Origin: Squalus acanthias
Taxonomy: Eukaryota
Assembly: GCA_030390025.1 (NCBI GenBank)
Contig: JASTWF010000034.1
Coordinates: 5,518,001 to 5,582,000, forward strand
Length of the DNA stretch: 64,000 nucleotides
Direction of reading: 5' to 3'
Both the position numbers and the translations under genes were made by a program. This document shows, piece after piece, positions 21,707-62,000 of this stretch (position 1 is its first letter; each line of letters opens with the position of its first letter). The notes beneath the pieces are model-generated. The model did no database searches. It was not told the DNA's origin and was given only the letters and a program-made list of their open reading frames with translations.

Positions 21707-22125
21707 TCTGGATGGGTAGTGACAGTATGAGTGAGGTCAGTGATAATCCTGGATGGGTAGAGACAGTATGAGTGAGGTCAGTGATAAACCTGGATGGGTA
21801 GTGACAGTATGAGTGAGGTCAGTGATAAACCTGGATGGGTAGTGACAGTATGAGTGAGGTCAGTAATAAACCTGGATGGGTAGTGACAGTATGAGTGAGG
21901 TCGGTGATAAACCTGGATGGGTATTGACAGTATGAGTGAGGTCAGGGATAAACCTGGACGGGAAGTTACAGTATGATTGAGGTCAGTGATAAACCTGGAT
22001 GGGTATTGACAGTTTGAGTGAGGTCAGTGATAATCCTGGATGGGTAGTGACAGTATGAGTGAGGTCAGTGATAATCCTGGATGTGTAGTGACAGTATGAG
22101 TGATGTCAGGGTAAACCTGGATGGG
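21707..22125. repeat. 41-bp minisatellite, ~10 units (gtgacagtatgagtgaggtcagtgataaacctggatgggta)
   Basis: 41-bp period; degenerate units continue to ~22450. Confidence 0.93.
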
Positions 22126-24537: not shown

Positions 24538-26305
24538 CTGGATGGGTAGTGACAGTATGAGTGAGGTCAGTGATAAACCTGGATGGGTAGTGACAGTATG
24601 AGTGAGGTCAGTGATAAACCTGGATGGGTAGTGACAGTATGAGTGATGTCAGTGATAATCCTGGATGGGTAGTGACAGTATGAGTGAGATCAATGATAAT
24701 CCTGGATGGGTAGTGACAGTATGAGTGAGGTCAGTGATAATACTGGATGGGTCGAGACAGTATGAGTGAGGTCAGTTTTAAACCTGGATGGGTAGTGACA
24801 GTATGAGTGAGCTCAGTGATAAACTTGGATGGGTAGTGACAGTATGAGTGAGGTCAGTGATAATCCTGGATGGGTAGTGACAGTATGAGTGAGATCAATG
24901 ATAATCCTGGATGGGTAGTGAGAGTATGAGTGAGGTCAGTGATAAACCTGGATGGGTAGTGACAGTATGAGTGAGGTCAGTGATAAACCTGGATGGGTAG
25001 TGACAGTATGAGTGAGGTCAGTGATCAACCTGGATGGGTAGTGAGAGTATGAGTGAGGACAGTGATAAACCTGGATGGGTGGTGAAACTCTGAGTGAGGT
25101 CAGTGATAATCCTGGATGGGTAGTGACAGTATGAGTGAGGTCAGTAATAAACCTGGATAGGTAGTGACAGTATGAGTGAGGTCAGTGATAAACCTGGATG
25201 GGTATTGACAGTATGAGTGAGGTCAGTGATAATCCTGGATGGGTAGTGACCCTATGAGTGAGGTCAGTGATAAGCCTGGATGGGTAGTGACAGTATGAGT
25301 GAGGTCAGTGTTAAACCTGGATGGGTATTGACAGTATGAGTGAGGTCAGTGATAATCCTGGATGGGTAGTGACCCTATGAGTGAGGTCAGTGATAAGCCT
25401 GGATGGGTAGTGACAGTATGAGTGAGGTCAGTGATAAACCTGGATGGGTAGTGACAGTATGAGGAGGTCAGTGATAATCATGGATGGGTTTTGACAGTAT
25501 GAGTGAGGTCAGTGATAATCCTGGATGGATAGTGACAGTATGAGTGAGGTCAGTGATAAACCTGGATGGGTAGTGACAGTATGAGTGAGGTCAGTGATAA
25601 ACCTGGATGGCTACTGACAGTATGAGTGAGGTCAGTGATAAACCTGGATTGGTAGTGACAGTATGAGTGAGGTCAGTTATAACCCTGGATTGGTAGTGAC
25701 AATATGAGTGAGGTCAGTTATAACCCTGGATTGGTAGTGAAAGTATGAGTGAGGTCAGTTATAACCCTGGATTGGTAGTGACAGTATGAGTGAGGTCAGT
25801 TATAACCCTGGATTGGTAGTGACAGTATGAGTGAGGTCAGTGATAAACCTGGATGGGTAGTGTCAGTATGAGTGAGGTCAGTGACAAACCTGGATGGGTA
25901 GTGACAGTATGAGTGAGGTCAGTGATAAACCTGGATGGCTACTGACAGTATGAGTGAGGTCAGTGATAAACCTGGATGGGCAGTGACAGTATGAGTGAGG
26001 TCAGTGATAATCCTGTATGGATAGTGACAGTATAAGTGAGGTCAGTGATAATCCTGGATGGGTAGTGACAGTATGAGTGAGGTCAGTGATAATCCTGTAT
26101 GTTTAGTGACAGTATGAGTGAGGTCAGTGATAAACCTGGATGGGTAGTGACAGTATGAGTGAGGTCAGTGATAATCCTGTATGGATAGTGACAGTATGAG
26201 TGAGGTCAGTGATAAACCTGGATGGGTAGTGACAGTATGAGTGAGGTCAGTGATAATCCTGGATGGGTAGTGACAGTATGAGTGAGGTCAGTGATAAACC
26301 TGGAT
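24538..26305. repeat. 41-bp minisatellite, ~43 homogeneous units
   Basis: Same monomer as 21707-22125; run of a ttataaccctggatt variant at ~25675-25815. Confidence 0.96.
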
Positions 26306-27536
26306 GTGGAATGTTGGTTCAAGTGAAGTTCGTGGTATACAGAATGTATAGTGACCGTATAAGTGAGGTCAGTGAAATATCGGAATGGGTAGTAACAGTA
26401 GATGTGAAGTCAGTTACATTTCTAAATAACTATCAAATCTTACTGCATGTTCTGTGTGAAGCGATGATTTCTGTTGCTTGTGTTGAAACCGGCAGTGAGA
26501 CTGTCAGCTAACAGGGTCATATTAGTGCCAGTCCGTTGGTCACAGCAGCATCAGACATTATTCCCGCTCATGTTTGTTACAGAACTGAAAATATTTAAAT
26601 AGGGATATCGAGGAGGGGCAATCAGGACAATCCACTTCTCCCAAAGATCAGTTTCTGAACACTCCAGGTTTGCTAATTCAAACTGATCATTAGTTCGTGC
26701 TGTACCAGAGAATTTTATTTGTGAACTGACCTGCTCCATGTTTCAAGAACGGTATCTGAGTGTAAACTGACCGGGTGAATTGGATAGACAGTCGCTGAAA
26801 TGACAGGATTAGAATTTATCACCGAAATTGTCTGAAATCTGTAACTAAGTCTCTGCTCTCAATGTAATGCTATCGGACTGTGGGACTCATATTTTTAATT
26901 TTCCCAGTTCTAGTGGAATAATATTCAGTCTTTGGGAAGTTCGGCTTAAAGATGGGCAATACCTGTCTAATATTAATATAGATATAAAATCATATACTTT
27001 ATATTTGTTATATGAAGTGCCGGACCAGAACAGGTTAATTTCAGCCGTTCAGTGACTAATTGATGAGAGTCTCCATGGGAACTAATTGTCTCTGCTTGTT
27101 ATTAATTCCAGTCAGTTGAACACAGCAGGTCACAGATTATTCTTTCCAATGTTTATTATAATGGAACATATTTAAAATATATCACAGATCTGCATTTTGC
27201 TAATCTCAATAAATCAATTCCTATCATTTAATCATTAAACACTCTGACTGTCCAGAAACCAAGAGATGTTCATCTCACTCAGCGAGGTTGCACTGTGGGA
27301 ATCGGGTTCACTCTGCAGGATTGAAAATGTAGACTGCTGGGTGGAAAGGTGCTAATAAATATCAGGACTTTCAAAATACGGCAACAGATTCTGACCATTG
27401 TAAGCAGCACATTTCAGAGATTCACTATTCCTCTTTATAAGTTCAGTCTATACAGCATCAGTGTGAAAATCCCAGCCCCCCTAAGAAGGCAGAACCCAGG
27501 CAACACCGACGGTCCCTCATTGTGGGGGATGGAGAT

Positions 27537-37000: not shown

Positions 37001-38878
37001 TACACCTGACTCCAGTCCCTCACTATCCGGTCTGGGTCTGCACCTGACTCCAGTCCCTCACTACCCGGTCTGGGTATACACCTGACTCCAGTCCCTCATT
37101 ACCAGGTCTGGGCCGACACCTGACTCGAGTCCCTCACTACCCGGTCTCGGTCTACACCTGACTCCAGTCCCTCACTACCCGGTTTGGGTCTACACATGAC
37201 TCCAGTCCTTCACTACCCAGGCTGGGTCTACATCTGACTCCACTCCCTCACTACCCGGTCTGGGCCACATCTGACTCCACTCCCTCACTACCCGGTCAGG
37301 GCCGACATCTGACTCCATTCCCTCTATACCAGGTCTGGCCCTACACCTGACTCCAGTCCCTCACTACCTGGTCTGGGTATACACCTGACTCCAGTCCCTC
37401 ACTACCCGGTCTGGGCCTGCACCTGACTCCGGTCCCTCAATACATGGTCTGGGTATACACCAGACTCCGGTCCCTCAATACCTGGTCTGGTCCTACAGCT
37501 GACTCCAGTCCCTCACTACCTGGTCTGGGTATACACCTGACTCCAGTCCCTCACTACCCGGTCTGGGCCTACACCTGACTCCGGTCCCTCAATACATGTT
37601 GTGGGCATACACCTGACTCCAGTCCCTCACTATCCGTCTGAGCCGACACCTGACTCCAGTCCCGCAATACCCGGTTTGGATCTGCACCTGACACCAGTCC
37701 CTCACTACCCGGTCTGGGCCGACATCTGATCCAGTCCCTCAATACCCGGTTTGCATTTTCACCTGACTCCAGTCCCTCACTAACCAGTCTGGGCCTACAC
37801 CTGACTCCAATCCCTCACTACCCAGTCTGGGCCTACACCTGACTCCAGTCCCTCACCACCTGATCTTGGCCTGCACCCGAATCCAGTCCCTCACTACCCG
37901 GTCTGGGTATGCACCTGAATCCTTCCCTCAATAGCTGGTCTTGGCCTACACCCGACTCCAGTCCCCCACTACCCGGTCTGGGCCCACACCTGACTCCAGT
38001 CCCTCATTACCCGGTCTGGGTCTACACCTGACTCCAATCCCTCACTACCTGGTCTGGGTCTACACCTGACTCCAGTCTATCACTATCCGGTCTGGGTCTG
38101 CACCTGACTCCAGTCCCTCACTACCCGGTCTGGGTATACACCTGTATCCAGTTCCTCAATACCTGGTCTGTTCCTGCAGCTGACTTCAGTCCCTCACTGC
38201 ACGGTCTGGGCCTACATCTGACTCCATTCCCTCTAAAGCAGGTCTGGCCCTACACCTGACTCCAGTCCCTCACTACCCAGTCTGGGCCTACACCTGACTC
38301 CAATCCCTCACTACCCAGTCTGGGCCTACACCTGACTCCAGTCCCTCACTACCTGGTCTTGGCCTACACCCGATTCCAGTCCCTCACTACCCGGTCTGGG
38401 TATGCACCTGATTCCTTCCCTTACTAGCCGGTCTTGGCCTACACCCGACTCCAGTCCCCCACTACCCGGTCTGGGCCCACACCTGACTCCAGTCCCTCAT
38501 TACTCGGTCTGGGTCTACACCTGACTCCAGTCCCTCTCTACCCCCTCTTAGCCTACACCTGACTCCGGTCCCTCACTACCTGGTCTGGGTCTACACCTGA
38601 CTCCAGTCCCTCACTATCCGGTCTGGGTCTGCACCTGACTCCAGTCCCTCTCTACCCGGTCTGGGTATACACCTGACTCCAGTCCCTCATTACCAGGTCT
38701 GGGCCGACACCTGACTCGAGTCCCTCACTACCCGGTCTCGGTCTACACCTGACTCCAGACCCTCACTACCCGGTCTGGGTCTACACATGACTCCAGTCCT
38801 TCACTACCCAGGCTGGGTCTAAATCTGACTCCACTCCCTCACTACCCGGTCAGGGCCGACATCTGACTCCATTCCCTC
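28043..38878. repeat. 38-bp satellite (ctacccggtctgggcctacacctgactccagtccctca), segment 1
   Basis: 38-bp period; C-rich + strand; recurring ordered variants. Confidence 0.97.
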
Positions 38879-39092
38879 TGACGTAATAAAGACTCACTAC
38901 GCACTTGAACATAAAGCAAGGCTTTAATCAACTTGTAACAAACATGGAGGTCTAGTTAGCAGTCACTAGCTTCCTGTTTCCAGATTGTCTCTGCCCAAGG
39001 TGGGCCCATGCCTGAGTATTTATACTCCCTGGACGGCGCCCCAGCTGGCCACCCAGTAGTACTTCCTGAGTTGTTACTTGCGATTTATGACA
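38879..39092 (-). repeat. 3' LTR of copy A (214 bp)
   Basis: Direct repeat of 43173-43387; minus strand TGTCATAA..TTACGTCA; contains TATAAA and ATTAAA. Confidence 0.96.
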
Positions 39093-39104
39093 TTCTTCCT
39101 CCCT
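39093..39104 (-). other. Polypurine tract AGGGAGGAAGAA (copy B: 54791-54802)
   Basis: Purine run abutting the 3' LTR on the minus strand. Confidence 0.9.
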
Positions 39105-39172
39105 AAAAGGTTTGGAAGTCCAGTCTTCCTTTAACGGACTAGGCGGACCAGAAATAGCCGCAGACGTTTAGG

Positions 39173-41770
39173 TCACTGCTTGTGACTGGAAGGCACGTCT
39201 CCCCGGAGCGTGTCCTGGTCCCTGGGTCGCTTGGCCCGTACCGGTAAGTCAGTAGAGTCCGCGTCATCTTGATCATCCTGTGGAGGACTGGGAATATCAT
39301 GACTCCGGGTGCGGGTCCCCACAGGTGCTGAGCTGGCCTCATCCCGGGTCGTGGCTGGAGATTGTCCGGCGTCCTGGTTTCGGGTGGCCATCCTACGGGG
39401 AGCGTCCAGCTCCCTGAGTTGATCCAGTAGCGTTGCCGGCAGATCCCCCGATGTCCCAGGCGGGGCGTCATTTTCATAGGGGTGCGGAGTGTTGATATCA
39501 TTGTCGGGGGATCCTTCATCATTCGGGCCCGTGTGACCGGTTGGGCAGGGAGCCAGATCTCGGAGCGAGACGGTGGTCTCCCGGCCATCAGGGTACCGTA
39601 CGTGCGCATACGTGGGGTTTACCTCCGTTAACTCCACCTCGTCAACGAGAGGGTCGTTTTTGGCAGACCGGACGAACCTCCGGAGTAGCACCGGGCCTGG
39701 AGCCACCAACCATGACGGTAGAGACGTCCCATGTGTAGAGCGACGCCGGAATTTGAAGAATCGCTCATGAGGCGTGACATTAGTAGATGTGGAGAGAAGA
39801 GACCTGATAGAGTGTAACGCGTCGGGGAGCACCATTTCCCACTGCTGGTCCGGCAGGTTGCGTGACCTTAGTGCCAGACGGACAGCGTTCCAGATGATGG
39901 CATTGTATCGTTCAACCTGTCCGTTACCGATTGGGTGATATGGTGTCGTCTTACTTGAGGCGATTCCCCGTTGGGAGAGATAACTTTTAAGTTCACTCGA
40001 CATAAAGGAGGGACCCCGATCAGTGTGGATAAAATTGGCCGTCCCGCAAAGGGAAAAGACCTGATCGAGGCATTTAATTACCGTAGAGGTAAGCATATTA
40101 GGGCAGGGGAAGGCGAAGGGAAAGCGTGAATACTCGTCCACCATCGTAAGTAGGTAGGTGTTCCTTGTCGACGAAGGCAATGGCCCTTTAAAGTCTATGC
40201 TGAGCCTCTGCATAGGCTGCATTGCATGTATGAGTAAGCCATCTGATGGGCGAAAGAATTGTGGTTTCAATTCTGCACAAATCCTACAGGAGGAGCATGT
40301 TTTCTTTACGTCCTCGGTTGAAAATGGTAGATTTTTGGAGCGCGCAAAGTGCAACATGCGGGTCACACCAGGATGGCATAAGTCCATATGCAAATCCGCC
40401 AGAGTCGACGTTGACATTGAGGAGCAAAATGCCTGTGTGAAGGTATCTGGGGCCACGTTCTGTTTGCCGGGTCGGTAACAGATAGTATATCCAAAGGCAG
40501 CCAGCTCCATCCTCCAGAGTTGAATTTTATTATTTTTGATTTTCGTGCGCCTCCGGTTATCCAACATGAAGGCCACAGAGCGCTGGTCAGTTATAAGTGT
40601 AAAATGACGCCGAGCAAGAAAATGACCCCATTGGCGTACAGCCTCGATGATGGCCGTAGCCTCCTTCTCGACGGGGGGGTAATGGAGCTCGCTACCCTGC
40701 AAGGTTCTGGATAGGAATGCCACGGGTCGGCCACCTTGATTCAAGGTAGCGGAGATCGCCACCTCCGATGCATCGCATTCGACCACAAAAGGAAGATTTT
40801 CGTCAATGGAGCGAAGCGTGGCTTTCTCCAGCTGTCGTTTGAGGAGGTTGAAGGCAGAAATAGCCGTAGCTTCCAATGGAAAAGACTTCGCATGGAGCAG
40901 GGGCTGTATTTTATCGGAGAAGTGTGGTATCCATTTTGCGTAATAAGCAAACATGCCAAGTGCCCGACGAAGAGAGCCGAGGTTCGTCGGGGGAGGGAGC
41001 TCCTGAAGTGGACGAAATCGCTCTGGGTCCGGTTTAATAACACCGTTGCCCACCCAGTAGCCAAGAATGTTCACCGATGGCACCGACTTCACCGATTTGG
41101 ATTCGTTTAACGTTAAGTGGCGACGGCGGAGTACGTCAAAAAATCTCTGAAGATTGGCGTCATGCTCCTTTTGATCATGGCCGGCAATAGTGATATTGTC
41201 TAAATACGGAAAGGTATCCGTAAAGTTCTCTTGCCGGACTAGGCCATCCATGGCCCGTTGGAAGACGGCCACCCCAGTGGTGACCCCGAATGGAAGGCGG
41301 CGAAACTGGAAAAGCCGACCATTGGCCTCAAAGGCCGTATACTTCTTGTCGGAGTCTTGCAGTGGCACCTGATGGTACGCGCTTTTTAAATCGAAGGTCG
41401 AGAATACCTTGTATTTGGCAAGGTTGTTGACCATGTCATCTATGCGTGGCAGCGGGTAGGCATCCAGATCGGTATATAGATTAATAGTCTGCGAATAATC
41501 GATACACAGACGTTTTTTATGTTGTTTTAAGGGATTCCTTACGATGACGACCTGAGCCCGCCAGGGAGATGAACATGGCTTGATAATACCGTCGACTAAA
41601 AGGCGAGAGATTTCCGCCTCAATAAACGCTCGATCATCTTGGCTAAAGCGCCGCGATTTGGTGGCTATGGGTTTAAAGCGGGGGGGAAGATTGGAAAACA
41701 GGGAGGGTTCACCGAGTAAGGCCGCCGAGAGTGCACAAAACGGCACCTTAGAAATGGTAAGACCCGGCCT
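39173..41770 (-). pseudogene. pol: pol part of copy A (RT, RNase H, integrase), cut from gag-PR by an in-frame TGA
   Basis: RLCIDY, DLKSAYHQ, LPFG, YLDN; CDAS, EKE, TDQ; HHCC and D,D,E (SIDFKGP, HTDRGP, QVER); same frame as the upstream ORF. Confidence 0.9.
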
Positions 41771-43072
41771 TCACCCTCCAAACTCAAAAGTGATCTTCTT
41801 GTGCTGCTTCTGGAAGTCCTGTCCCAGAAGCACATCGCTGCATAAGTTTGCGAGTACTCCGAGCCGGGTGGAGAGATACGTGCGGCCGTTGAGGATGAGG
41901 TTGACCAGACAGAAGCCAGAAGAATTGGTGGTCAGAGTCGTCAGAGCCATTGCAATCTCCCTGTCCGAGGGATAAATGTGCAGTTTTAACCTGTTGACAG
42001 CCCGCTTACTAATGAAGCTGTCAGAGCTGCAGGAGTCGATTAGCGCGCTTAGAGTGTGCCCATTTACTGAAACCTTCGTGGCTGCATGGGACAAACTTTG
42101 GGGAAAAACAGCCGTGATGGGAGGAGGGGCAATTTTCCCTTCGGCAACTGTAGCCTTAACAGTAGTTCTTGGGGGAGGAGCAGCTCCATAGATAGCAGCT
42201 GTGAAGCTAACAGGAGCTCTCGACCGGTATACTTTAGAGGAGCGGCCTTTCTTGTTAGCAAAGGCCCGTGACTGGCATACCTTGGAAAAGTGTCCTTTCT
42301 TGCTGCAATGATTGCAGGTCACATTACGAGCCGGGCAAAATTTTCTGTGATGGCACGCCCCTCCACAAAAGAAACACTTTCTTCCTGATTGCCAGGATGC
42401 TGCTAGGGCGGGGTCATCATCAGCGAAGGCCTCTAGGATAGGGTCGTCGTCTGTTAGAGTAGAGTCAACATCAGTGGGGGCATCTGCCCGAGACCTACCG
42501 AAAGACTCATTAAAGGAGATAGCCGCCGCCCATGCACGTGGTGGGAGATAAGTGTCTGCATTTTTCTTGGCCAAGTCCAAGGAACACGCCTGGTCATAAG
42601 CAGCCCGTAAATTGAGGGTTTTATTTTCCAGCAGGCGCTGACGTATAAAAGGGGACGCGATTCCATTGATAAAGGAATCGCGGATTAGTTCCTCTTGATA
42701 CTGTTCAGCTGAAACTGCTTTAAGGTTACAATCCTTGCTGAGCCTGCGAAGTTTCTGGAGAAATTCATCGAGTGATTCCCCAGGCTGCTGCCGAGTTATG
42801 GCCAGTAGGTGTCGAGCAAAGATTTCATTTGGGGACTTGACATATAGCTGCTGTAAGATTTCGATAGCAGTGTCATAGTCTATGCAGTCCTCAATATAAT
42901 CATACACATGATGAGACACGTAGTTGATAAGCATTCGTAACTTATTAGGGACATCCGCCCCACATTCTTCAAGAAAGTTGCTAAAGGTACGAAACCAATG
43001 CTTCCATACCTTTGCTGCCGCAGGTGCATTCGGGTCCAGGTCGAGACGAGCGGGTCTAAGGAGTTTTTCCAT
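41771..43072 (-). CDS. gag: Gag plus aspartic protease of copy A (433 aa), ending at a premature stop
   Basis: Two CX2CX4HX4C knuckles (CFFCGGACHHRKFC, CNHCSKKGHFSKVC), LIDSCSS, LLGQDF; the stop codon is TCA in copy B. Confidence 0.9.
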   Translation of the reverse strand: MEKLLRPARLDLDPNAPAAAKVWKHWFRTFSNFLEECGADVPNKLRMLINYVSHHVYDYIEDCIDYDTAIEILQQLYVKSPNEIFARHLLAITRQQPGESLDEFLQKLRRLSKDCNLKAVSAEQYQEELIRDSFINGIASPFIRQRLLENKTLNLRAAYDQACSLDLAKKNADTYLPPRAWAAAISFNESFGRSRADAPTDVDSTLTDDDPILEAFADDDPALAASWQSGRKCFFCGGACHHRKFCPARNVTCNHCSKKGHFSKVCQSRAFANKKGRSSKVYRSRAPVSFTAAIYGAAPPPRTTVKATVAEGKIAPPPITAVFPQSLSHAATKVSVNGHTLSALIDSCSSDSFISKRAVNRLKLHIYPSDREIAMALTTLTTNSSGFCLVNLILNGRTYLSTRLGVLANLCSDVLLGQDFQKQHKKITFEFGG

Positions 43073-43158
43073 GATGGATCAGTTTCTTGCCCAAGTTCCC
43101 TTCTGTGGTTTGAGTTGCAGCTGGTTGTTCTGAATCACCCAAAGCGTGGAGACGATAT

Positions 43159-43171
43159 CAAGTTGATTAAA
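43159..43171 (-). other. Non-tRNA primer-binding-site candidate TTTAATCAACTTG (copy B: 58857-58869)
   Basis: 1 nt from the 5' LTR; no TGG; exact reverse complement of LTR segment 43217-43229. Confidence 0.7.
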
Positions 43172-43172
43172 T

Positions 43173-43387
43173 TGACGTAATAAAGACTCACTACGCACTT
43201 GAACATAAAGCAAGGCTTTAATCAACTTGTAACAAAACATGGAGGTGCAGTTAGCAGTCACTAGCTTCCTGTTTCCAGAATGTCTCTGCCCAAGGTGGGC
43301 CCATGCCTGAGTATTTATACTCCCTGGACGGCGCCCCAGCTGGCCACCCAGTAGTACTTCCTGAGTTGTTACTTGCGATTTATGACA
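43173..43387 (-). repeat. 5' LTR of copy A (215 bp); TATAAA at 43314-43319
   Basis: Differs from its 3' LTR by 1 indel and 3 substitutions (by eye). Confidence 0.96.
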
Positions 43388-46300
43388 CCCTCTATACCAG
43401 GTCTGGCCCTACACCTGACTCCAGTCCCTCACTACCCGGTTTGGATTTTCACCTGACTCCAGTCCCTCACTACCCAGTCTGGGTCTACACCTGACTCCAA
43501 TCCCTCACTACCCAGTCTGGGCCTACACCTGACTCCAGTCCCTCACTACCTGGTCTTGGCCTACACCCGAATCCAGTCCCTCACTACCCGGTCTGGGTAT
43601 GCACCTGACTCCTTCCCTCAATAGCCGGTCTTGGCCTACACCCGACTCCAGTCCCCCACTACCCGGTCTGGTCCCACACCTGACTCCAGTCCCTCATTAC
43701 TCGGTCTGGGTCTACACCTGATTCCAGTCTCTCACTACCCGGTCTGGTTACACACCTGAACCCAGTTCCTCAATACCTGGTCTGGTCCTACAGCTGACTT
43801 CAGTCCCTCACTGCACGGTCTGGGCCTGCATCTGACTCCATTCCCTCTAAACCAGGTCTGGCTCTACACCTGATTCCAGTCCCTCACTACCCAGTCTGGG
43901 CCTACACCTGACTCCAATCCCTCACTACCCAGTCTGGGCCTACACCTGACTCCAGTCCCTCACTACCTGGTCTTGGCCTACACCCGAATCCAGTCCCTCA
44001 CTACCCGGTCTGGGTGTGCACATGACTCCTTCTCTCACAAGCCGGTCTTGGCCTGCACCCGACTCCAGTCCCCCACTACCCGGTCTGGGCCCACACCTGA
44101 CTCCAGTCCCTCATTAAACAGTCTGGGTCTACACCTGACTCCAGTCCCTCACTACCCCATCTTAGCCTACACCTGACTCCAATCCCTCACTACACAGTCT
44201 GGGCCTACACCTGACTCCAGTCCCTCACTACCTGGTCTGGGCCGACACCTGACTCCAGTCCCTCACTATCTGGTCTGGGCCGACACCTGACTCCAGTCCC
44301 TCACTATCTGGTCTGGGTCTGCACCTGACTCCAGTCCCTCACTACCCGGTCTGGGTATACACCTGAATACAGTCCCTCAATAACTGGTCTGGTCCGACAG
44401 CTGACTCCAGTCCCTCACTGCACGGTCTGGGCCTACATCTGACTCCATTCCCTCTAAACCAGGTCTGGCCCTTCACCTGACTCCAGTCCCTCACTACCCG
44501 GTCTGGGTCTACACCTGACTCCAGTCCCTCACTACCCGGCCTGGGTCTACACATGACTCCAGTCCTGCACTACCCAGGCTGGGTCTACATCTGACTCCAC
44601 TCCCTCACTACCCGGTCTGGGCCACATCTGAATCCACTCCCTCACTACCCGGTCAGGGCCTACATCTGACTCCATTCCCTCTATATCAGGTCTGGCCGTA
44701 CACCTGACTCCGGTCCCTCACTACCAGGTCTGGGCCTACACCTGACTCCAGTCCCTCACTACCCGATCTGGGTCCACATCTGACTCCAGTCCCTCACTAC
44801 CCGGACTGGCCCTACACCTGACTCCAGTCCCTCACTAACTGGTCTGGGCCTGCACCTGACTCCGGTCCCTCAATACCTGCTCTGGGCCCACACCAGACTC
44901 CGGTCCCTCAATACCTGGTCTGGTCCTACACCTGACTCCAGTCCCTCACTACCCGGTCTGGGTCTATACCTCACTCCAGACCCTCACTATCCGTCTGAGA
45001 CGACACCTGACTCCAGTCCCTCACTACCCGGTCTGGGTCCACATCTGAATCCAGTCCCTCACTACCCGGACTGGCCCTACACCTGACTCCAGTCCCTCAC
45101 TACCCGGTCTGGGTGTGCACATGACTCCTTCTCTCACAAGCCGGTCTTGGCCTGCACCCGACTCCAGTCCCCCACTACCCGGTCTGGGCCCACACCTGAC
45201 TCCAGTCCCTCATTAAACAGTCTGGGTCTACACCTGACTCCAGTCCCTCACTACCCCATCGTAGCCTACACCTGACTCCAATCCCTCACTACACAGTCTG
45301 GGCCTACACCTGACTCCAGTCCCTCACTACCTGGTCTGGGCCGACACCTGACTCCAGTCCCTCACTATCTGGTCTGGGCCGACACCTGACTCCAGTCCCT
45401 CACTATCTGGTCTGGGTCTGCACCTGACTCCAGTCCCTCACTACCCGGTCTGGGTATACACCTGAATCCAGTCCCTCAATAACTGGTCTGGTCCGACAGC
45501 TGACTCCAGTCCCTCACTGCACGGTCTGGGCCTACATCTGACTCCATTCCCTCTAAACCAGGTCTGGCCCTTCACCTGACTCCAGTCCCTCACTACCCGG
45601 TCTGGGTCTACACCTGACTCCAGTCCCTCACTACCCGGCCTGGGTCTACACATGACTCCAGTCCTGCACTACCCAGGCTGGGTCTACATCTGACTCCACT
45701 CCCTCACTACCCGGTCTGGGCCACATCTGAATCCACTCCCTCACTACCCGGTCAGGGCCTACATCTGACTCCATTCCCTCTATATCAGGTCTGGCCGTAC
45801 ACCTGACTCCGGTCCCTCACTACCAGGTCTGGGCCTACACCTGACTCCAGTCCCTCACTACCCGATCTGGGTCCACATCTGACTCCAGTCCCTCACTACC
45901 CGGACTGGCCCTACACCTGACTCCAGTCCCTCACTAACCGGTCTGGGCCTGCACCTGACTCCGGTCCCTCAATACCTGCTCTGGGCCCACACCAGACTCC
46001 GGTCCCTCAATACCTGGTCTGGTCCTACACCTGACTCCAGTCCCTCACTACCCGGTCTGGGTCTATACCTCACTCCAGACCCTCACTATCCGTCTGAGAC
46101 GACACCTGACTCCAGTCCCTCACTACCCGGTCTGGGTCCACATCTGAATCCAGTCCCTCACTACCCGGACTGGCCCTACACCTGACTCCAGTCCCTCACT
46201 AACCGGTCTGGGCCTGCACCTGACTCCGGTCCCTCAATACCTGCTCTGGGCCCACACCAGACTCCGGTCCCTCACTACCAGGTCTGGGCCTACACCTGAC

Positions 46301-52300: not shown

Positions 52301-54576
52301 CACAACCCAGGCTGGGTCTACACCTGACTCCAGTCCCTCACTACCCGGTCTGGGCCTATACCTGAATCCAGTCCCTCAATAACTGGTCTGGTCCTACAGC
52401 TGACTTCAGTCTCTCACTGCACGGTCTGGGCCTACAACTGACTCCATTCCCTCTAAACCAGGTCTGGCCCTACACCTGACTCCGGTCCCTCACTTCCCGG
52501 TCTGGGCCTGCACCTGACTCCGGTCCCTCAATACCTGGTCTGGGCCCACACCTGACTCCGGTCCCTCACTACCTGGTCTTGTCCTACACCTGACTCCAGT
52601 CCCTCACTACCCGGTCTGGGTCTATACCTCAATCCAGCCCCTCACTATCCGTCTGAGCCGACACCTGAATCCAGTCCCTCAATACCCGGTTTGGATCTAC
52701 ACCTGACTCCAGTCCCTCTCGGCCCGTTCTGGTCCTACACCTATCTCCAGTCCCTCACTAACCGGTCTGGACCTACACCTGACTCCAATCCCTCACTACG
52801 CAGTCTTGGTATACACCTGACTCCATTCCCTCATTACCCGGTCTGGGCCTACACCTGACTCCAGTCCCTCACTACCCGGTCTGGTCCTACACCTGACTCC
52901 AGTCACTCACTACCCGGTCTGGGTCTACACCTGACTCCAGTCCCTCACTACCTGGTCTGGGCCCAAACCTGACTCCGGTCCCTCAATACCCGGTCTCGGC
53001 CTATACCTGACTCCAGTCCCTCACTACCGAGTCTGAGCCCACACCTGACTCCGGTCCCTCAATACCTGGTCTGGTCCTGCACCTGACTCCGGTCCCTCAT
53101 TACCCGGTCTGGGCCTACACCTGGCACCATTCCCTCAATACCCGGTCTGGGCCCATACCTGACTCCGGTCCCTCAGTACCCGGTCTGGGCCTACACCTGA
53201 CACCATTCCCTCAATACCCGGTCTTGGCCTACACCTGACTCCAGACCCTCACCACCCGGTCTTGGCCTACACCTGACTCCAGTCCCTCACTACCCGGTCT
53301 GGGTCTATACCTCACTCCAGACCCTCACTATCCGTCTGAGCCGACACCTGACTCCAGTCCCTCAATACCCGGTTTGGATCTGCACCTGACACCAGTCCCT
53401 CACTACCCGGTCTGGGCCGACATCTGATCCAGTCCCTCAATACCCGGTTTGGATTTTCACCTGACTCCAGTCCCTCACTAACCAGTCTGGGCCTACACCT
53501 GACTCCAATCCCTCACTACCCAGTCTGGCCCTACACCTGACTCCAGTCCCTCACCTCCTGATCTTGGCCTGCACCCGAATCCAGTCCCTCACTACCCGGT
53601 CTGGGTATGCACCTGAATCCTTCCCTCAATAGCTGGTCTTGGCCTACACCCGACTCCAGTCCCCCACTACCCGGTCTGGGCCCACACCTGACTCCAGTCC
53701 CTCATTACCCGGTCTGGGTCTACACCTGACTCCAATCCCTCACTACCAGGTCTGGGTCTACACCTGACTCCAGTCTATCACTATCCGGTCTGGGTCTGCA
53801 CCTGACTCCAGTCCCTCACTACCCGGTCTGGGTATACACCTGAATCCAGTTCCTCAATACCTGGTCTGGTCCTGCAGCTGACTTCAGTCCCTCACTGCAC
53901 GGTCTGGGCCTGCATCTGACTCCATTCCCTCTAAAGCAGGTCTGGCCCTACACCTGACTCCAGTCCCTCACTACCCAGTCTGGGCCTACACCTGACTCCA
54001 ATCCCTCACTACCCAGTCTGGGCCTACACCTGACTCCAGTCCCTCACTACCTGGTCTTGGCCTACACCCGATTCCAGTCCCTCACTACCCGGTCTGGGTA
54101 TGCACCTGATTCCTTCCCTTACTAGCCGGTCTTGGCCTACACCCGACTCCAGTCCCCCACTACCCGGTCTGGGCCCACACCTGACTCCAGTCCCTCATTA
54201 CTCGGTCTGGGTCTACACCTGACTCCAGTCCCTCTCTACCCCCTCTTAGCCTACACCTGACTCCGGTCCCTCACTACCTGGTCTGGGTCTACACCTGACT
54301 CCAGTCCCTCACTATCCGGTCTGGGTCTGCACCTGACTCCAGTCCCTCACTACCCGGTCTGGGTATACACCTGACTCCAGTCCCTCATTACCAGGTCTGG
54401 GCCGACACCTGACTCGAGTCCCTCACTACCCGGTCTCGGTCTACACCTGACTCCAGACCCTCACTACCCGGTCTGGGTCTACACATGACTCCAGTCCTTC
54501 ACTACCCAGGCTGGGTCTAAATCTGACACCACTCCCTCACTACCCGGTCAGGGCCGACATCTGACTCCATTCCCTC
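43388..54576. repeat. 38-bp satellite, segment 2, with internal 1099-bp and 2275-bp tandem duplications
   Basis: 38-bp period; ORF pairs 44342/45441 and 49623/51898 give the offsets. Confidence 0.96.
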
Positions 54577-54790
54577 TGACGTAATAAAGACTCACTACGC
54601 ACTTGAACATAAAGCAAGGCTTTAATCAACTTGTAACAAACATGGAGGTCTAGTTAGCAGTCACTAGCTTCCTGTTTCCAGATTGTCTCTGCCCAAGGTG
54701 GGCCCATGCCTGAGTATTTATACTCCCTGGACGGCGCCCCAGCTGGCCACCCAGTAGTACTTCCTGAGTTGTTTCTTGCGATTTATGACA
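54577..54790 (-). repeat. 3' LTR of copy B (214 bp)
   Basis: Direct repeat of 58871-59085, TG..CA ends. Confidence 0.96.
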
Positions 54791-54870
54791 TTCTTCCTCC
54801 CTAAAAGGTTTGGAAGTCCAGTCTTCCTTTAACGGACTAGGCGGACCAGAAATAGCCGCAGACGTTTAGG

Positions 54871-57800
54871 TCACTGCATGTGACTGGAAGGCACGTCTCC
54901 CCGGACCGTGTCCTGGTCCCTGGGTCGCTTGGCCCGTACCGGTAAGTCAGTAGAGTCCGCGTCATCTTGATCATCCTGCGGAGGACTGGGAATATCATGA
55001 CTCCGGGTGCGGGTCCCCACAGGTGCTGAGCTGGCCTCATCCCGGGTCGTGGCTGGAGATTGTCCGGCGTCCTGGTTTCGGGTGGCCATCCTACGGGGAG
55101 CGTCCAGCTCCCTGAGTTGATCCAGTAGCGTTGCCGGCAGATCCCCCGATGTCCCAGGCGGGGCGTCATTTTCATAGGGGTGCGGAGTGTTGATATCATT
55201 GTCGGGGGATCCTTCATCATTCGGGCCCGTGTGACCGGTTGGGCAGGGAGCCAGATCTCGGAGCGAGACGGTGGTCTCCCGGCCATCAGGGTACCGTACG
55301 TGCGCATACGTGGGGTTTACCTCCGTTAACTCCACCTCGTCAACGAGAGGGTCGTTTTTGGCAGACCGGACGAACCTCCGGAGTAGCACCGGGCCTGGAG
55401 CCACCAACCATGACGGTAGAGACGTCCCATGTGTAGAGCGACGTCGGAATTTGAAGAATCGCTCATGAGGCGTGACATTAGTAGATGTGGAGAGAAGAGA
55501 CCTGATAGAGTGTAACGCGTCGGGGAGCACCGTTTCCCACTGCTGGTCCGGAAGGTTGCGTGACCTTAGTGCCAGACGGACAGCGTTCCAGATGATGGCA
55601 TTGTATCGTTCAACCTGTCCGTTACCGATTGGGTGATATGGTGTCGTCTTACTTGAGGCGATTCCCCGTTGGGAGAGATAACTTTTAAGTTCACTCGACA
55701 TAAAGGAGGGACCCCGATCAGTGTGGATAAAATTGGCCGTCCCGCAAAGGGAAAAGACCTGATCGAGGCATTTAATTACCGTAGAGGTAAGCATATTAGG
55801 GCAGGGGAAGGCGAAGGGAAAGCGTGAATACTCGTCCACCATCGTAAGTAGGTAGGTGTTCCTTGTCGACGAAGGCAATGGCCCTTTAAAGTCTATGCTG
55901 AGCCTCTGCATAGGCTGCATTGCATGTATGAGTAAGCCATCTGATGGGCGAAAGAATTGTGGTTTCAATTCTGCACAAATCCTACAGGAGGAGCATGTTT
56001 TCTTTACGTCCTCGGTTGAAAATGGTAGATTTTTGGAGCGCACAAAGTGCAACATGCGGGTCACACCAGGATGGCATAAGTCCATATGCAAATCCGCCAG
56101 AGTCGACGTTGACATTGAGGAGCAAAATGCCTGTGTGAAGGTATCTGGGGCCACGTTCTGTTTGCCGGGTCGGTAACAGATAGTATATCCAAAGGCAGCC
56201 AGCTCCATCCTCCAGAGTTGAATTTTATTATTTTTGATTTTCGTGCGCCTCCGGTTATCCAACATGAAGGCCACAGAGCGCTGGTCAGTTATAAGCGTAA
56301 AATGACGCCGAGCAAGAAAATGACCCCATTGGCGTACAGCCTCGATGATGGCCGTAGCCTCCTTCTCGACGGGGGGGTAATGGAGCTCGCTACCCTGCAA
56401 GGTTCTGGATAGGAATGCCACGGGTCGGCCACCTTGATTCAAGGTAGCGGAGATCGCCACCTCCGATGCATCGCATTCGACCACAAAAGGAAGATTTTCG
56501 TCAATGGAGCGAAGCGTGGCTTTCTCCAGCTGTCGTTTGAGAAGGTTGAAGGCAGAAATAGCCGTAGCTTCCAATGGAAAAGACTTCGCATGGAGCAGGG
56601 GCTGTATTTTATCGGAGAAGTGTGGTATCCATTTTGCGTAATAAGCAAACATGCCAAGTGCCCGACGAAGAGAGCCGAGGTTCGTCGGGGGAGGGAGCTC
56701 CTGAAGTGGACGAAGTCGCTCTGGGTCCGGTTTAATAACACCGTTGCCCACCCAGTAGCCAAGAATGTTCACCGATGGCACCGACTTCACCGATTTGGAT
56801 TCGTTTAACGTTAAGTGGCGACGGCGGAGTACGTCAAAAAATCTCTGAAGATTGGCGTCATGCTCCTTTTGATCATGGCCGGCAATAGTGATATTGTCTA
56901 AATACGGAAAGGTATCCGTCAAGTTCTCTTGCCGGACTAGGCCATCCATGGCCCGTTGGAAGACGGCCACCCCAGTGGTGACCCCGAATGGAAGGCGGCG
57001 AAACTGGAAAAGCCGACCATTGGCCTCAAAGGCCGTATACTTCTTGTCGGAGTCTTGCAGTGGCACCTGATGGTACGCGCTTTTTAAATCGAAGGTCGAG
57101 AATACCTTGTATTTGGCAAGGTTGTTGACCATGTCATCTATGCATGGCAGCGGGTAGGCATCCAGATCGGTATATAGATTAATAGTCTGCGAATAATCGA
57201 TACACAGACGTTTTTTATGTTGTTTTAAGGGATTCCTCACGATGACGACCTGAGCCCGCCAGGGAGATGAACATGGCTCGATAATACCGTCGACTAAAAG
57301 GCGAGAGATTTCCGCCTCAATAAACGCTCGATCATCTTGGCTAAAGCGCCGCGATTTGGTGGCTATGGGTTTACAGCGGGGGGGAAGATTGGCAAACAGG
57401 GAGGGTTCACCGAGTAAGGCCGCCGAGAGTGCACAAAACGGCACCTTAGAAATGGTAAGCTCCGGCCTTGACGCTCCAAACTCAAAAGTGATCTTCTTGT
57501 GCTGCTTCTGGAAGTCCTCTCCCAGAAGCACATCGCTGCATAAGTTTGCGAGTACTCCGAGCCGGGTGGAGAGATACGTGCGGCCGTTGAGGATGAGGTT
57601 GACCAGACAGAAGCCAGAAGAATTGGTGGTCAGAGTCGTCAGAGCCATTGCAATCTCCCTGTCCGAGGGATAAATGTGCAGTTTTAACCTGTTGACAGCC
57701 CGCTTACTAATGAAGCTGTCAGAGCTGCAGGAGTCGATTAGCGCGCTTAGAGTGTGCCCATTTACTGAAATCTTCGTGGCTGCATGGGACAAACTTTGGG

Positions 57801-58770
57801 GAAAAACAGCCGTGATGGGAGGAGGGGCAATTTTCCCTTCGGCAACTGTAGCCTTAACAGTAGTTCTTGGGGGAGGAGCAGCTCCATAGATAGCAGCTGT
57901 GAAGCTAACAGGAGCTCTCGACCGGTATACTTTAGAGGAGCGGCCTTTCTTGTTAGCAAAGGCCCGTGACTGGCATACCTTGGAAAAGTGTCCTTTCTTG
58001 CTGCAATGATTGCAGGTCACATTAGGAGCCGGGCAAAATTTTCTGTGATGGCACGCCCCTCTACAAAAGAAACACTTTCTTCCTGATTGCCAGGATGCTG
58101 CTAGGGCGGGGTCATCATCAGCGAAGGCCTCTAGGGTAGGGTCGTCGTCTGTTAGAGTAGAGTCAACATCAGTGGGGGCATCCGCCCGAGACCAACCGAA
58201 AGACTCATTAAAGGAGATAGCCGCCGCCCGTGCACGTGGTGGGAGATAAGTGTCTGCATTTTTCTTGGCCAAGTCCAAGGAACACGCCTGGTCATAAGCA
58301 GCCCGTAAATTGAGGGTTTTATTTTCCAGCAGGCGCTGACGTATAAAAGGGGACGCGATTCCATTGATAAAGGAATCGCGGATTAGTTCTTCTTGATACT
58401 GTTCAGCTGAAACTGCTTTAAGGTTACAATCCTTGCTGAGCCTGCGAAGTTTCTGGAGAAATTCATCGAGTGATTCCCCAGGCTGCTGCCGAGTTGTGGC
58501 CAGTAGGTGTCGAGCAAAGATTTCATTTGGGGACTTGACATATAGCTGCTGTAAGATTTCGATAGCAGTGTCATAGTCTATGCAGTCCTCAATATAATCA
58601 TACACATGATGAGACACGTAGTTGATAAGCATTCGTAACTTATTAGGGACATCCGCCCCACATTCTTCAAGAAAGTTGCTAAAGGTACGAAACCAATGCT
58701 TCCATACCTTTGCTGCCGCAGGTGCATTCGGGTCCAGGTCGAGACGAGCGGGTCTAAGGAGTTTTTCCAT
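54871..58770 (-). CDS. gag-pol: Single Gag-Pol polyprotein, 1299 aa (Gag, two zinc knuckles, protease, RT, RNase H, integrase, low-complexity tail)
   Basis: Uninterrupted ORF with all domains in Ty3/Gypsy order; no env or chromodomain recognised. Confidence 0.96.
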   Translation of the reverse strand: MEKLLRPARLDLDPNAPAAAKVWKHWFRTFSNFLEECGADVPNKLRMLINYVSHHVYDYIEDCIDYDTAIEILQQLYVKSPNEIFARHLLATTRQQPGESLDEFLQKLRRLSKDCNLKAVSAEQYQEELIRDSFINGIASPFIRQRLLENKTLNLRAAYDQACSLDLAKKNADTYLPPRARAAAISFNESFGWSRADAPTDVDSTLTDDDPTLEAFADDDPALAASWQSGRKCFFCRGACHHRKFCPAPNVTCNHCSKKGHFSKVCQSRAFANKKGRSSKVYRSRAPVSFTAAIYGAAPPPRTTVKATVAEGKIAPPPITAVFPQSLSHAATKISVNGHTLSALIDSCSSDSFISKRAVNRLKLHIYPSDREIAMALTTLTTNSSGFCLVNLILNGRTYLSTRLGVLANLCSDVLLGEDFQKQHKKITFEFGASRPELTISKVPFCALSAALLGEPSLFANLPPRCKPIATKSRRFSQDDRAFIEAEISRLLVDGIIEPCSSPWRAQVVIVRNPLKQHKKRLCIDYSQTINLYTDLDAYPLPCIDDMVNNLAKYKVFSTFDLKSAYHQVPLQDSDKKYTAFEANGRLFQFRRLPFGVTTGVAVFQRAMDGLVRQENLTDTFPYLDNITIAGHDQKEHDANLQRFFDVLRRRHLTLNESKSVKSVPSVNILGYWVGNGVIKPDPERLRPLQELPPPTNLGSLRRALGMFAYYAKWIPHFSDKIQPLLHAKSFPLEATAISAFNLLKRQLEKATLRSIDENLPFVVECDASEVAISATLNQGGRPVAFLSRTLQGSELHYPPVEKEATAIIEAVRQWGHFLARRHFTLITDQRSVAFMLDNRRRTKIKNNKIQLWRMELAAFGYTICYRPGKQNVAPDTFTQAFCSSMSTSTLADLHMDLCHPGVTRMLHFVRSKNLPFSTEDVKKTCSSCRICAELKPQFFRPSDGLLIHAMQPMQRLSIDFKGPLPSSTRNTYLLTMVDEYSRFPFAFPCPNMLTSTVIKCLDQVFSLCGTANFIHTDRGPSFMSSELKSYLSQRGIASSKTTPYHPIGNGQVERYNAIIWNAVRLALRSRNLPDQQWETVLPDALHSIRSLLSTSTNVTPHERFFKFRRRSTHGTSLPSWLVAPGPVLLRRFVRSAKNDPLVDEVELTEVNPTYAHVRYPDGRETTVSLRDLAPCPTGHTGPNDEGSPDNDINTPHPYENDAPPGTSGDLPATLLDQLRELDAPRRMATRNQDAGQSPATTRDEASSAPVGTRTRSHDIPSPPQDDQDDADSTDLPVRAKRPRDQDTVRGDVPSSHMQ

Positions 58771-58870
58771 GATGGATCAGTTTCTTGCCCAAGTTCCCTT
58801 CTGTGGTTTGAGTTGCAGCTGGTTGTTCTGAATCACCCAAAGCGTGGAGACGATATCAAGTTGATTAAAT

Positions 58871-59085
58871 TGACGTAATAAAGACTCACTACGCACTTGA
58901 ACATAAAGCAAGGCTTTAATCAACTTGTAACAAAACATGGAGGTCCAGTTAGCAGTCACTAGCTTCCTGTTTCCAGATTGTCTCTGCCCAAGGTGGGCCC
59001 ATGCCTGAGTATTTATACTCCCTGGACGGCGCCCCAGCTGGCCACCCAGTAGTACTTCCTGAGTTGTTACTTGCGATTTATGACA
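58871..59085 (-). repeat. 5' LTR of copy B (215 bp)
   Basis: Differs from its 3' LTR by 1 indel and 2 substitutions (by eye). Confidence 0.96.
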
Positions 59086-62000
59086 CCCTCTATACCAGGT
59101 CTGGCCCGACACCTGACTCCAGTCCCTCACTACCCGGTTTGGATTTTCACCTGACTCCAGTCCCTCACTACCCAGTCTGGGTCTACAATGACTCCAATCC
59201 CTCACTACCCAGTCCCTCAATACCTGCTCTGGGCCCACACCAGACTCCAGTCCCTCAATACCTGGTCTGGTCCTACACCTGACTCCAGTCCCTCACTACC
59301 TGGTCTGGGTCTATACCTCACTCCAGACCCTCACTATCCGTCTGAGCCGACACCTGACTCCAGTCCCTCAATACCCGGTTTGGATCAACAGCTGACCCCA
59401 GTCCCTCACTACCCGGTCTGGGCCTACACCTGACACCAGTCCCTTATTACCCGGTCTGAGTCTACACCTGACTCCAGTTCCTCATTACCCGGTCTGAGTC
59501 TACACCTGACTCCAGTCCCTCACAACCCAGGCTGGGTCTACACCTGACTCCAGTCCCTCACTACCCGGTCTGGGCCTATACCTGAATCCAGTCCCTCAAT
59601 AACTGGTCTGGTCCTACAGCTGACTTCAGTCTCTCACTGCACGGTCTGGGCCTACATCTGACTCCATTCCCTCTAAACCAGGTCTGGCCCTACACCTGAC
59701 TCCGGTCCCTCACTTCCCGGTCTGGGCCTGCACCTGACTCCGGTCCCTCACTACCTGGTCTGGGTCTATACCTCAATCCAGCCCCTCACTATCCGTCTGA
59801 GCCGACACCTGAATCCAGTCCCTCAATACCCGGTTTGGATCTACACCTGACTCCAGTCCCTCACGGCCCGTTCTGGTCCTACACCTAACTCCAGTCCCTC
59901 ACTAACCGGTCTGGGCCTACACCTGACTCCAATCCCTCACTACGCAGTCTTGGTATACACCTGACTCCATTCCCTCACTACCCGGTCTGGGCCTACATCT
60001 GACTCCAGTCCCTCACTACCCGGTCTGGTTCTACACCTGACTCCAGTCCCTCACTACCCGGTCTGGGTCTACACCTGACTCCAGTCCCTCACTACCTGGT
60101 CTGGGTCTACACCTGACTCCAGACCCTCACTACCCGGTCTGGGCCCAAACCTGACTCCGGTCCCTCAATACCCGGTCTCGGCCTATACCTGACTCCAGTC
60201 CCTCACTACCGAGTCTGACCCCACACCTGACTCCGGTCCCTCAATACCTGGTCTGGTCCTGCACCTGAATCCGGTCCCTCATTACCCGGTCTGGGCCTAC
60301 ACCTGCCACCATTCCCTCAATACCCGGTCTGGGCCCAAACCTGACTCCGGTCCCTCAGTACCCGGTCTGGGCCTACACCTGACACCATTCCCTCAATACC
60401 CGGTCTTGGCTTACACCTGACTCCAGTCCCTCACCACCCGGTCTTGGCCTACACCTGACTCCAGTCCCTCACTACCCGGTCTGGGTCTATACCTCACTCC
60501 AGACCCTCACTATCCGTCTGAGCTGACACCTGACTCCAGTCACTCAATACCCGGTTTGGATCTGCACCTGACACCAGTCCCTCACTACCCGGTCTGGGCC
60601 GGCATCTGATCCAGTCCCTCAATACCCGGTTTGGATTTTCACCTGACTCCAGTCCCTCACTAACCAGTCTGGGCCTACACCTGACTCCAATCCCTCACTA
60701 CCCAGTCTGGGCCTACACCTGACTCCAGTCCCTCACCACCTGATCTTGGCCTGCACCCGAATCTAGTCCCTCACTACCCGGTCTGGGTATGCACCTGAAT
60801 CCTTCCCTCAATAGCCGGTCTTGGCCTACACCCGACTCTCGTCCCCCACTACCCGGTCTGGGCCCACACCTGACTCCAGTCCCTCATTACTCGGTCTGGG
60901 TCTACACCTGACTCCAGTCCCTCACTACCCCCTCTTAGCCTACACCTGACTCCGGTCCCTCACATCCTGGTCTGGGTCTACACCTGACTCCAGTCCCTCA
61001 CTACCCGGTCTGGGTATACACCTGACTCCAGTCCCTCATTACCAGGTCTGGGCCGACACCTGACTCGAGTCCCTCACTACCCGGTCTCGGTCTACACCTG
61101 ACTCCAGTCCCTCACTACCCGGTCTGGGTATACACATGACTCCAGTCCTTCACTACCCAGGCTGGGTCTACATCTGACTCCACTCCCTCACTACCCGGTC
61201 TGGGCCACATCTGACTCCACTCCCTCACTACCCGGTCAGGGCCGACATCTGACTCCATTCCCTCTGTACCAGGTCTGGCCCTACACCTGACTCCAGTCCC
61301 TCACTACCTGGTCTGGGTATACACCTGACTCCAGTCCCTCACTACCCGGTCTGGGCCTGCACCTGACTCCGTTCCCTCAATACATGGTCTGGGTATACAC
61401 CAGACTCCGGTCCCTCAATACCTGGTCTGGTCCTACAGCTGACTCCAGTCCCTCACTGCACGGTCTGGGCCTACATCTGACTCCATTCCCTCTAAACCAG
61501 GTCTGGCCCTACACCTGACTCCAGTCCCTCACTACCCGGTCTGGGTATACACCTGACTCCAGTCCCTCATTACCAGGTCTGGGCCGACACCTGACTCCTG
61601 TCCCTCATTACCAGGTCTGGGTCTACACCTGACACCATTCCCTCAATACCCGGTCTTGGCCTACACCTGACTCCAGTCCCTCACTACACGGTGTGGGCCT
61701 ACACCTGACTCCAGTCCCTCACTATCCATCTGAGCCGACACCTGACTCCAGCCCCTCAATACCCGGTTTGGATCTGCACCTGACACCAGTCCCTCACTAC
61801 CCGGTCTGGGCCGGCATCTGATCCAGTCCCTCAATACCTGGTTTGGATTTTCACCTGACTCCAGTCCCTCACTAACCAGTCTGGGCCTACACCTGACTCC
61901 AATCCCTCACTACCCAGTCTGGGCCTACACCTGACTCCAGTCCCTCACCACCTGATCTTGGCCTGCACCCGAATCCAGTCCCTCACTACCCGGTCTGGGT

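Follow-up and report, generated by a model that had tools for sequence, protein, structure and literature searches.

A Ty3/Gypsy retrotransposon of Squalus acanthias with a primer-binding site complementary to its own LTR: a candidate for Tf1-type self-priming outside the chromoviruses

A Ty3/Gypsy retrotransposon in the genome of Squalus acanthias carries, at the place where a primer-binding site (PBS) is expected, a 13-base sequence that is perfectly complementary to a segment of its own LTR, and in related elements from other genomes the two sequences differ from element to element and change together. Judged from these comparisons the pairing is functional and is not a product of chance. 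We conclude that elements of this group most likely start the copying of their RNA with a piece of the same RNA, as Tf1 does.

The element and its LTR/PBS pairing

The window, by which we mean the whole stretch of 64,000 nucleotides analysed, contains two copies of the element (Table 1). Copy A is a Ty3/Gypsy LTR retrotransposon of 4,509 bp that lies on the minus strand (38879-43387), and its two LTRs are 98.1% alike by self-BLAST (43173-43387 against 38879-39092). The uninterrupted 1,299-aa frame of copy B is a single polyprotein in which Pfam finds the domain order PR-RT-RNase H-IN, and its best relative of solved structure is the Ty3 Gag-Pol protein (7q5b, E 1.3e-54). This domain order, the TG...CA LTRs, the polypurine tract and the target duplication place the element in Ty3/Gypsy (Metaviridae). 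At E <= 1 neither a chromodomain (PF00385) nor a Retrotrans_gag domain was found by Pfam in the copy B frame, and an Rfam scan of the element gave zero matches.

Table 1. Coordinates of the retrotransposon copies, their features and the surrounding satellites in the window.
Feature	Position	Strand	Basis or remark
5' LTR, copy A, 215 bp, TG...CA	43173..43387	-	self-BLAST; ends read
3' LTR, copy A	38879..39092	-	own 13-mer at 38935-38923
Polypurine tract AGGGAGGAAGAA	39093..39104	-	abuts 3' LTR
Target-site duplication GAGGG, 5 bp	43388..43392	-	second copy 38878-38874
TATAAA box	43314..43319	-	90 nt before start of primer segment
Candidate self-primer segment CAAGTTGATTAAA, in LTR	43217..43229	-	13/13 complement of PBS; stem in minimum-energy fold
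Loop, 45 nt: predicted R end, U5, spacer A	43172..43216	-	RNA folds; R/U5 border inferred
Predicted primer-binding site TTTAATCAACTTG	43159..43171	-	one base past LTR
gag-PR-RT-RNase H-IN frame, copy A	39176..43072	-	in-frame stop 41773-41771; 433 + 865 codons
Copy B, duplicate of the same insertion	54577..59085	-	PBS 58869-58857; primer segment 58927-58915
Uninterrupted frame, copy B, 1,299 codons	58770-54874	-	
46-bp satellite	1-18113		
41-bp satellite	21708-22125 and 24538-26414		
38-bp satellite	28043-54576 and 59209-64000		retrotransposon inserted here

On the sense strand the 5' LTR ends in ...TTATTACGTCA at 43173 and is followed by a single spacer A (43172) and then by the PBS (43171-43159). 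A TGG-type tRNA site is absent after the 5' LTR, the terminal CA being followed by A and then by TTTAAT..., a layout that recurs in the relatives described below. The PBS and the LTR segment at 43229-43217 are complementary at 13 of 13 bases across a loop of 45 nt. The sequence-only reading that drew attention to this region had described a PBS without TGG that is a perfect complement of the element's own LTR, and both the sequence and the coordinates are as it claimed. The window has six occurrences of the 13-mer: its + strand sites (38923, 43217, 54621 and 58915) fall one in each of the four LTRs, and its - strand sites (43159 and 58857) are the two PBS sites. By chance 0.01 occurrences are expected, and none of 100 shuffles reached six. 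The minimum-energy RNA fold retains the 13-bp stem (-20.4 kcal/mol, z -2.9), and within the loop it predicts a 9-bp hairpin at 43196-43175, just ahead of the PBS, and another of 4 bp at 43214-43198.

Two sequence signals lie close to the pairing. The last six bases of the primer segment (43222-43217) are ATTAAA, which bears out the earlier description of a 13-mer that terminates at a putative poly(A) signal; by eye this is the sole canonical poly(A) hexamer noticed in the LTR, and GU-rich sequence comes next. The TATAAA that had been reported upstream of the primer is also present, at a distance of 90 nt in place of the ~85 nt given earlier.

Copy B had been offered as a second case of the pairing, and the same pairing is indeed present there. 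However, copies A and B lie in a duplicated block of ~5.8 kb (~37650-43450 against its counterpart at +15,698 bp, ~53350-59150) that consists of the element together with ~1.2 kb of flanking satellite; the remaining 38-bp satellite array is just ~80-85% self-similar. Because this block is at least 99% identical, and because the two copies have identical flanks and the identical GAGGG target duplication, copy B is a duplicate of that one insertion and its flank and is not an independent replicate. Satellites with units of 46, 41 and 38 bp fill most of the window.

Covariation of primer and PBS

Independent cases of the pairing were found among relatives in other genomes. The closest proteins, at 60-79% identity among the best 120 listed, include those of cnidarians, molluscs, crustaceans, tunicates and a catshark, and a typical homologue is a frame of ~1,200 aa on a ~4-kb contig. 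A Chromo domain is absent from all of the 120 best homologues, and with none in the copy B frame either, the description of the element as a Gypsy without a chromodomain stands. A profile built from 20 homologues was used to fetch 80 metagenome loci, 19 of which have a gag start, anchored by the Gag N-terminus, together with enough upstream DNA to be judged. A stem was scored where at least 13 Watson-Crick pairs, with one mismatch allowed, ended no more than 40 nt from gag.

Such a stem is present in 15 of the 19 judged loci, with loops of 36-66 nt and with the end of the stem 0-36 nt before gag, and 2 of 1,900 shuffles reached 13 pairs. It is decayed in two further loci (L058 and L088) and absent from the remaining two, whose amino-acid identity is 45% (L042) and 36% (L074). 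In the elements for which LTR pairs could be found, the right arm begins 1-2 nt past the terminal CA of the LTR, and in most relatives gag starts 0-20 nt after this arm. Minimum-energy folds keep the stem in 12 of 12 elements, with one or two predicted hairpins in each loop. Hairpins of another kind were seen upstream of gag in L041 (L041:4184-4250; 21 of 22 bp, 31-nt loop) and ~1,495 nt before the RT match in L045 (16 of 17 bp, 36-nt loop), both in the class with 42-44% identity; they do not fit the pattern of primer, loop and PBS after CA-A.

The arms of these stems comprise ~12 distinct sequences of 11-19 bp, for example TTTAGCTAGTTAAA, AGTTATAGTAAATTAAA and GTTTTAGCTGAATAAA. An element's own arms pair at 11 of 11 positions in 11 elements, a value that holds by construction since the elements were picked for their stem, whereas arms swapped between elements pair at a mean of 7.4 of 11 positions and none of 108 swaps reaches 11. 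The LTR and PBS sequences of the relatives thus change together. A PBS kept without complementarity to the LTR, which the sequence-only reading had named as evidence that would speak against self-priming, was not seen among the relatives.

A second line of evidence comes from the host genome itself (3.7 Gb), in which the family is abundant and young. There are 1,641 candidates for the 5' region of the element, and the 40 of these that were scored are 97-100% identical; a 31-mer around TATAAA occurs 1,971 times with at most one mismatch, which fits the number of LTRs. Of 51 scored Pol matches, 31 lie in stop-free frames of 1,315 codons, and from its sequences the family looks recently active. 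The exact combination of primer, loop and PBS is present at 653 places.

Contigs from public runs contained a minority LTR variant (43224 A>G), which pointed to a second subfamily, ~95% identical to copy A, with a 4-nt insertion in the loop and C for T in the primer. When exact patterns were counted in the host genome, primer T was combined with PBS A at the 653 places just mentioned and C with G at 24, every one of them in the second subfamily, while C with A was found once and T with G ten times. If the PBS position opposite primer C is left free to be A or G, it is G at 24 of 25 places, and the pair is restored; the lone C/A place, which has no such insertion, is a main-subfamily copy that has mutated. 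Nine of the ten T/G places are decayed copies of the second subfamily. We considered whether the T/G copies might be replication intermediates and rejected this: since the 3' LTR still has C in five of the six copies that are readable, they reflect decay after insertion. The two subfamilies differ by one compensatory exchange of U-A for C-G. A search for a second, diverged family in the host genome (query P0108) returned just the same family, at 61% identity. The contigs of four public runs that matched 42300-43387 break at the LTR edge, as DNA assemblies do.

It can be seen that the relatives covary and that the host subfamilies differ by a compensatory pair, and both findings support what the sequence-only reading had proposed, namely priming without a tRNA by an LTR-derived RNA. 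They also bear on two other explanations. If the inverted repeat were a functionless product of chance, the A+T-rich composition of its arms would be the one thing in favour of this; the covariation, the shuffles and the U-A/C-G subfamilies of the host genome refute it, and we attach a negligible probability to it.

The other explanation is that a tRNA, a tRNA half or some other host RNA fragment is the primer and that the LTR merely resembles it. There is precedent for priming by internal tRNA fragments, since half-tRNA-Met and half-tRNA-Ile prime some plant Copia elements according to the available part of PMC6317226. In the present group, however, PBS sequences vary widely among relatives, each matching its own LTR, and a conserved host tRNA therefore cannot explain them. 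The 13-mer followed by A or C is found outside element contexts at 134 places in the host genome, against 117 for the reversed control, which is a chance level. ARAGORN identified no tRNA in the window, nor in any of the 30 places fetched out of these 134. A tRNA matching the PBS, which the sequence-only reading had asked about, is thus absent from the 30 host-genome places scanned, a sample in which mitochondrial tRNAs were not set apart. Together with the lack of TGG, these results make a host RNA primer very improbable.

Proposed priming mechanism and the start of the RNA

We think it probable that the primer is the element's own RNA, and that Tf1-type self-primed reverse transcription operates in this Gypsy clade without a chromodomain, whose hosts range from this vertebrate to cnidarian-like ones. 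From the complementarity, its position, the lack of a tRNA-type site, the covariation and the predicted fold, all observed here, we infer a scheme with several putative elements: where the RNA begins, where it is cut and by which enzyme, and where poly(A) is added. The LTR segment CAAGUUGAUUAAA (43229-43217) would fold back across the 45-nt loop and pair with the PBS. By analogy with Tf1, the RNA would then be cut just after ...AAA, presumably by the RNase H of the element, and the new 3'-OH would be extended through the spacer A and the loop to give a minus-strand strong-stop DNA of ~45 nt. This DNA would jump to the 3' copy of R, using the ~15-20 nt that separate ATTAAA from the predicted poly(A) site; with R ending that far past the primer, there would be enough sequence for the first strand transfer. 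Later, plus-strand synthesis would copy the primer and in this way rewrite the PBS, and this would account for the joint change of the two.

The sequence-only reading had also entertained the 3' end of the transcript as a source of the primer. An RNA terminating in ...AUUAAA and acting in trans would have the right polarity, and the 3' LTR bears the same 13-mer. Cleavage for polyadenylation takes place 10-30 nt past the hexamer and is followed by addition of the poly(A) tail. Because the cut falls past the hexamer and not at it, no RNA end is expected at AAA, and this source of the primer is highly unlikely. No poly(A)-ended contigs were found among L009-L088.

Under self-priming, two places come into question for the 5' end of the RNA. 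Within this explanation, we see about an even chance that the RNA starts at the duplex or within a few bases of it, in the plain Tf1 manner. A start at the duplex is favoured because of the Tf1 precedent, the problem that a 5' flap would pose, and the short LTR sequence, 91-94 nt, that precedes the primer in L009 and L010. The other place is ~30 nt past TATAAA (near 43290), which would put the primer inside R, the variant proposed in the sequence-only reading on the strength of the TATAAA, and give the RNA a leader of ~58 nt; the RNA would be cut after the 13-mer, and the leader would be trimmed by a second cut or tolerated. Such a TATAAA-directed start ~58 nt before the primer would be unlike Tf1. 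A canonical TATAAA with G+C-rich flanks at -90, with no TATA at -30, points in this direction, and so does the usual division of the LTR that a TATA-directed start would produce, with an inferred U3 of ~99, R of ~90 and U5 of ~27 nt. On the other side, the relatives have no TATA at -90, a 58-nt leader in L009 and L010 would leave a U3 of ~35 nt, and the 5' flap would be expected to enter the plus-strand strong-stop DNA and to block the second transfer unless it were removed. We regard a primer inside R as the less likely of the two readings, one that takes up part of the probability given to self-priming. In Tf2, as described in the available part of PMC5341516, an RNA contains the self-primer or lacks it depending on which start site is used, and transcripts with and without the primer could accordingly coexist here.

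In the relatives, neither a TATA box nor an initiator was found at a consistent distance from the primer, and TATA was seen at neither -30 nor -90. By eye, TCAGT stands at the start of the arm in L054, L058 and L073 only, three loci that are possibly related to each other. Counted from the primer's 3' end, position -10 is G in 10 of 11 elements and position -11 is A in 8 of 11 (43227-43226 in the window). We considered whether this conserved A/G might mark an 11-nt primer and rejected it, as the covarying stems run 2-8 bp further. Around the TATA box of the window element, the 32 nt at 43291-43322 are present at several-fold the LTR depth in contigs of runs X1 and X3, and in run X10 they lie inside a contig that is otherwise unlike the LTR; this segment may be a promoter module that other repeats of related species also carry.

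The 3' end of the primer has a recurrent form. By eye, the primer arm ends exactly in AATAAA or ATTAAA in ~10 of 15 distinct elements and in a one-letter variant of the hexamer in the rest, usually with GCC next, and the last two primer/PBS pairs are A-T in 11 of 11 elements. A primer whose 3' end is fixed to a poly(A)-like hexamer raises the question of how these elements ignore the copy of the signal at the 5' end of their RNA. As a hypothesis, pairing with the PBS might hide the hexamer at the 5' end of the RNA and leave it accessible at the 3' end. The hexamer-bearing left arm also lends itself to the view that the stem has a regulatory or packaging role in the leader, where it might for example hide the 5' poly(A) signal while another RNA primes, and masking of this kind would act at the 5' end only, where the PBS lies downstream. 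Yet the right arm sits exactly at the place of a PBS, 1-2 nt past CA, and there is no other PBS candidate; gag follows 0-20 nt past the arm in most relatives, and masking and priming are not mutually exclusive. We judge a solely regulatory stem to be unlikely.

If, on the other hand, the RNA does start upstream and the primer is inside R, one duplex would both supply the primer, after one or more internal cuts, and conceal the poly(A) signal at the 5' end of the RNA; at the 3' end, with no PBS behind it, the signal would remain accessible. That self-priming inside R, with a primer whose 3' end is the poly(A) hexamer, is a feature of the whole clade, in hosts ranging from cartilaginous-fish-like vertebrates to the cnidarian type, is a conjecture that we hold to be possible although rather doubtful. 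A known case of a 5' leader fold that shuts off the 5' copy of a poly(A) signal in R is the poly(A) hairpin of HIV-1. It has no priming role, unlike the stem proposed here, and the resemblance is a lead only.

Comparison with known systems

Tf1 has a target duplication of 5 bp, as has the window element with its GAGGG. Tf1 and Tf2 of S. pombe and Tj1 are further alike to the present element in that they have no tRNA PBS and in that the PBS directly behind the 5' LTR pairs with a part of the same RNA that lies upstream and derives from the LTR. They also have a U5 hairpin adjoining the PBS, for which the predicted hairpin at 43196-43175 is a candidate counterpart. In Tf1 the mRNA's first 11 bases anneal to the PBS, and the cut by RNase H falls between bases 11 and 12 (PMC7175516, available part). 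The Tf1 primer is thus the first 11 nt of the mRNA and its RNase H cut is proven, whereas in the present group the duplex is 11-19 bp and both are predictions. The integrase without a chromodomain is a further difference from Tf1, and the primer end at a poly(A)-like hexamer is a possible one.

In the available portions of PMC6317226, PMC6934838, PMC5006619 and PMC3601003, self-priming is shown for Tf1, and it is attributed to, or predicted in, Tf2, Tj1, fungal chromoviruses, the vertebrate sushi group, the Tcn1 clade and the Copia TAR lineage. For Tj1 (S. japonicus) it was inferred likewise (PMC4600332, available part). Vertebrate members of the Tf1/sushi group such as sushi-ichi (Butler et al. 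2001, as cited in PMC6317226 and PMC4600332), for which self-priming is predicted, share vertebrate hosts and a predicted mechanism with the present family; they are chromoviruses, unlike this family. The window element does not have the chromodomain of the Tf1/sushi group and is set apart from it by domain content, not by a tree. Without a chromodomain it lies outside the group in which self-priming is proven. The Tcn1 clade (Cryptococcus, mosses) and the Copia TAR lineage (Houba, Osr-1) resemble it in that self-priming is predicted for them from LTR/PBS complementarity of this kind, as far as the available parts of PMC6317226 and PMC7175516 describe them, and differ from it in having fungal or plant hosts and in belonging to other lineages.

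The Mag C-clade (SURL-like) and Cigr-1 comprise small Gypsy elements of marine animals with short LTRs and no chromodomain. Their hosts include molluscs, annelids, echinoderms, tunicates and vertebrates (PMC3601003, PMC6238403 and PMC8220671, in the parts available), and the mean LTR length in the Mag C training set is 174 bp in the accessible text of PMC3601003. The likeness of our element to these groups consists of hints (host range, short LTRs and a single frame of ~1,200-1,300 aa) and does not come from a tree. Placement in a clade by LTR end motifs was tried with the table in the available part of PMC3601003 and abandoned, as the motifs do not discriminate. In the literature searched, which included PMC2774666, we found no statement on the priming of SURL, Cigr-1, the Mag C-clade or Jule; older key papers were outside this search, and a prior description is possible.

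Proof of self-priming is confined to the fission-yeast Tf1 type in the parts of the literature available to us, and elsewhere it is a prediction, made chiefly for chromoviruses and for one lineage of plant Copia elements. A different group, animal Gypsy elements without a chromodomain, now shows the same architecture, with covariation to support it, and includes a young vertebrate family in which at least 653 LTR-PBS junctions are intact and many reading frames are open. From the sequence side, this suggests that independence of tRNA primers is more widespread in animals than the literature searched shows. Silencing based on tRNA fragments that targets the PBS is the topic of PMC7472051, going by its accessible portion. 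Independence of tRNA primers would also mean escape from silencing of this type.

The distribution of sequence identity in this group is patchy. The identity of copy B Pol (58770-54874) is 68-71% with named cnidarian proteins, 76-77% with other matches and just 61% with the one named cartilaginous-fish protein. One metagenome element with 57% Pol identity (L014:4441-4513) shares the exact 16-mer CAAGTTGATTAAAGCC, and the remainder of its LTR is unrelated. This pattern could reflect horizontal transfer or strong conservation of the primer.
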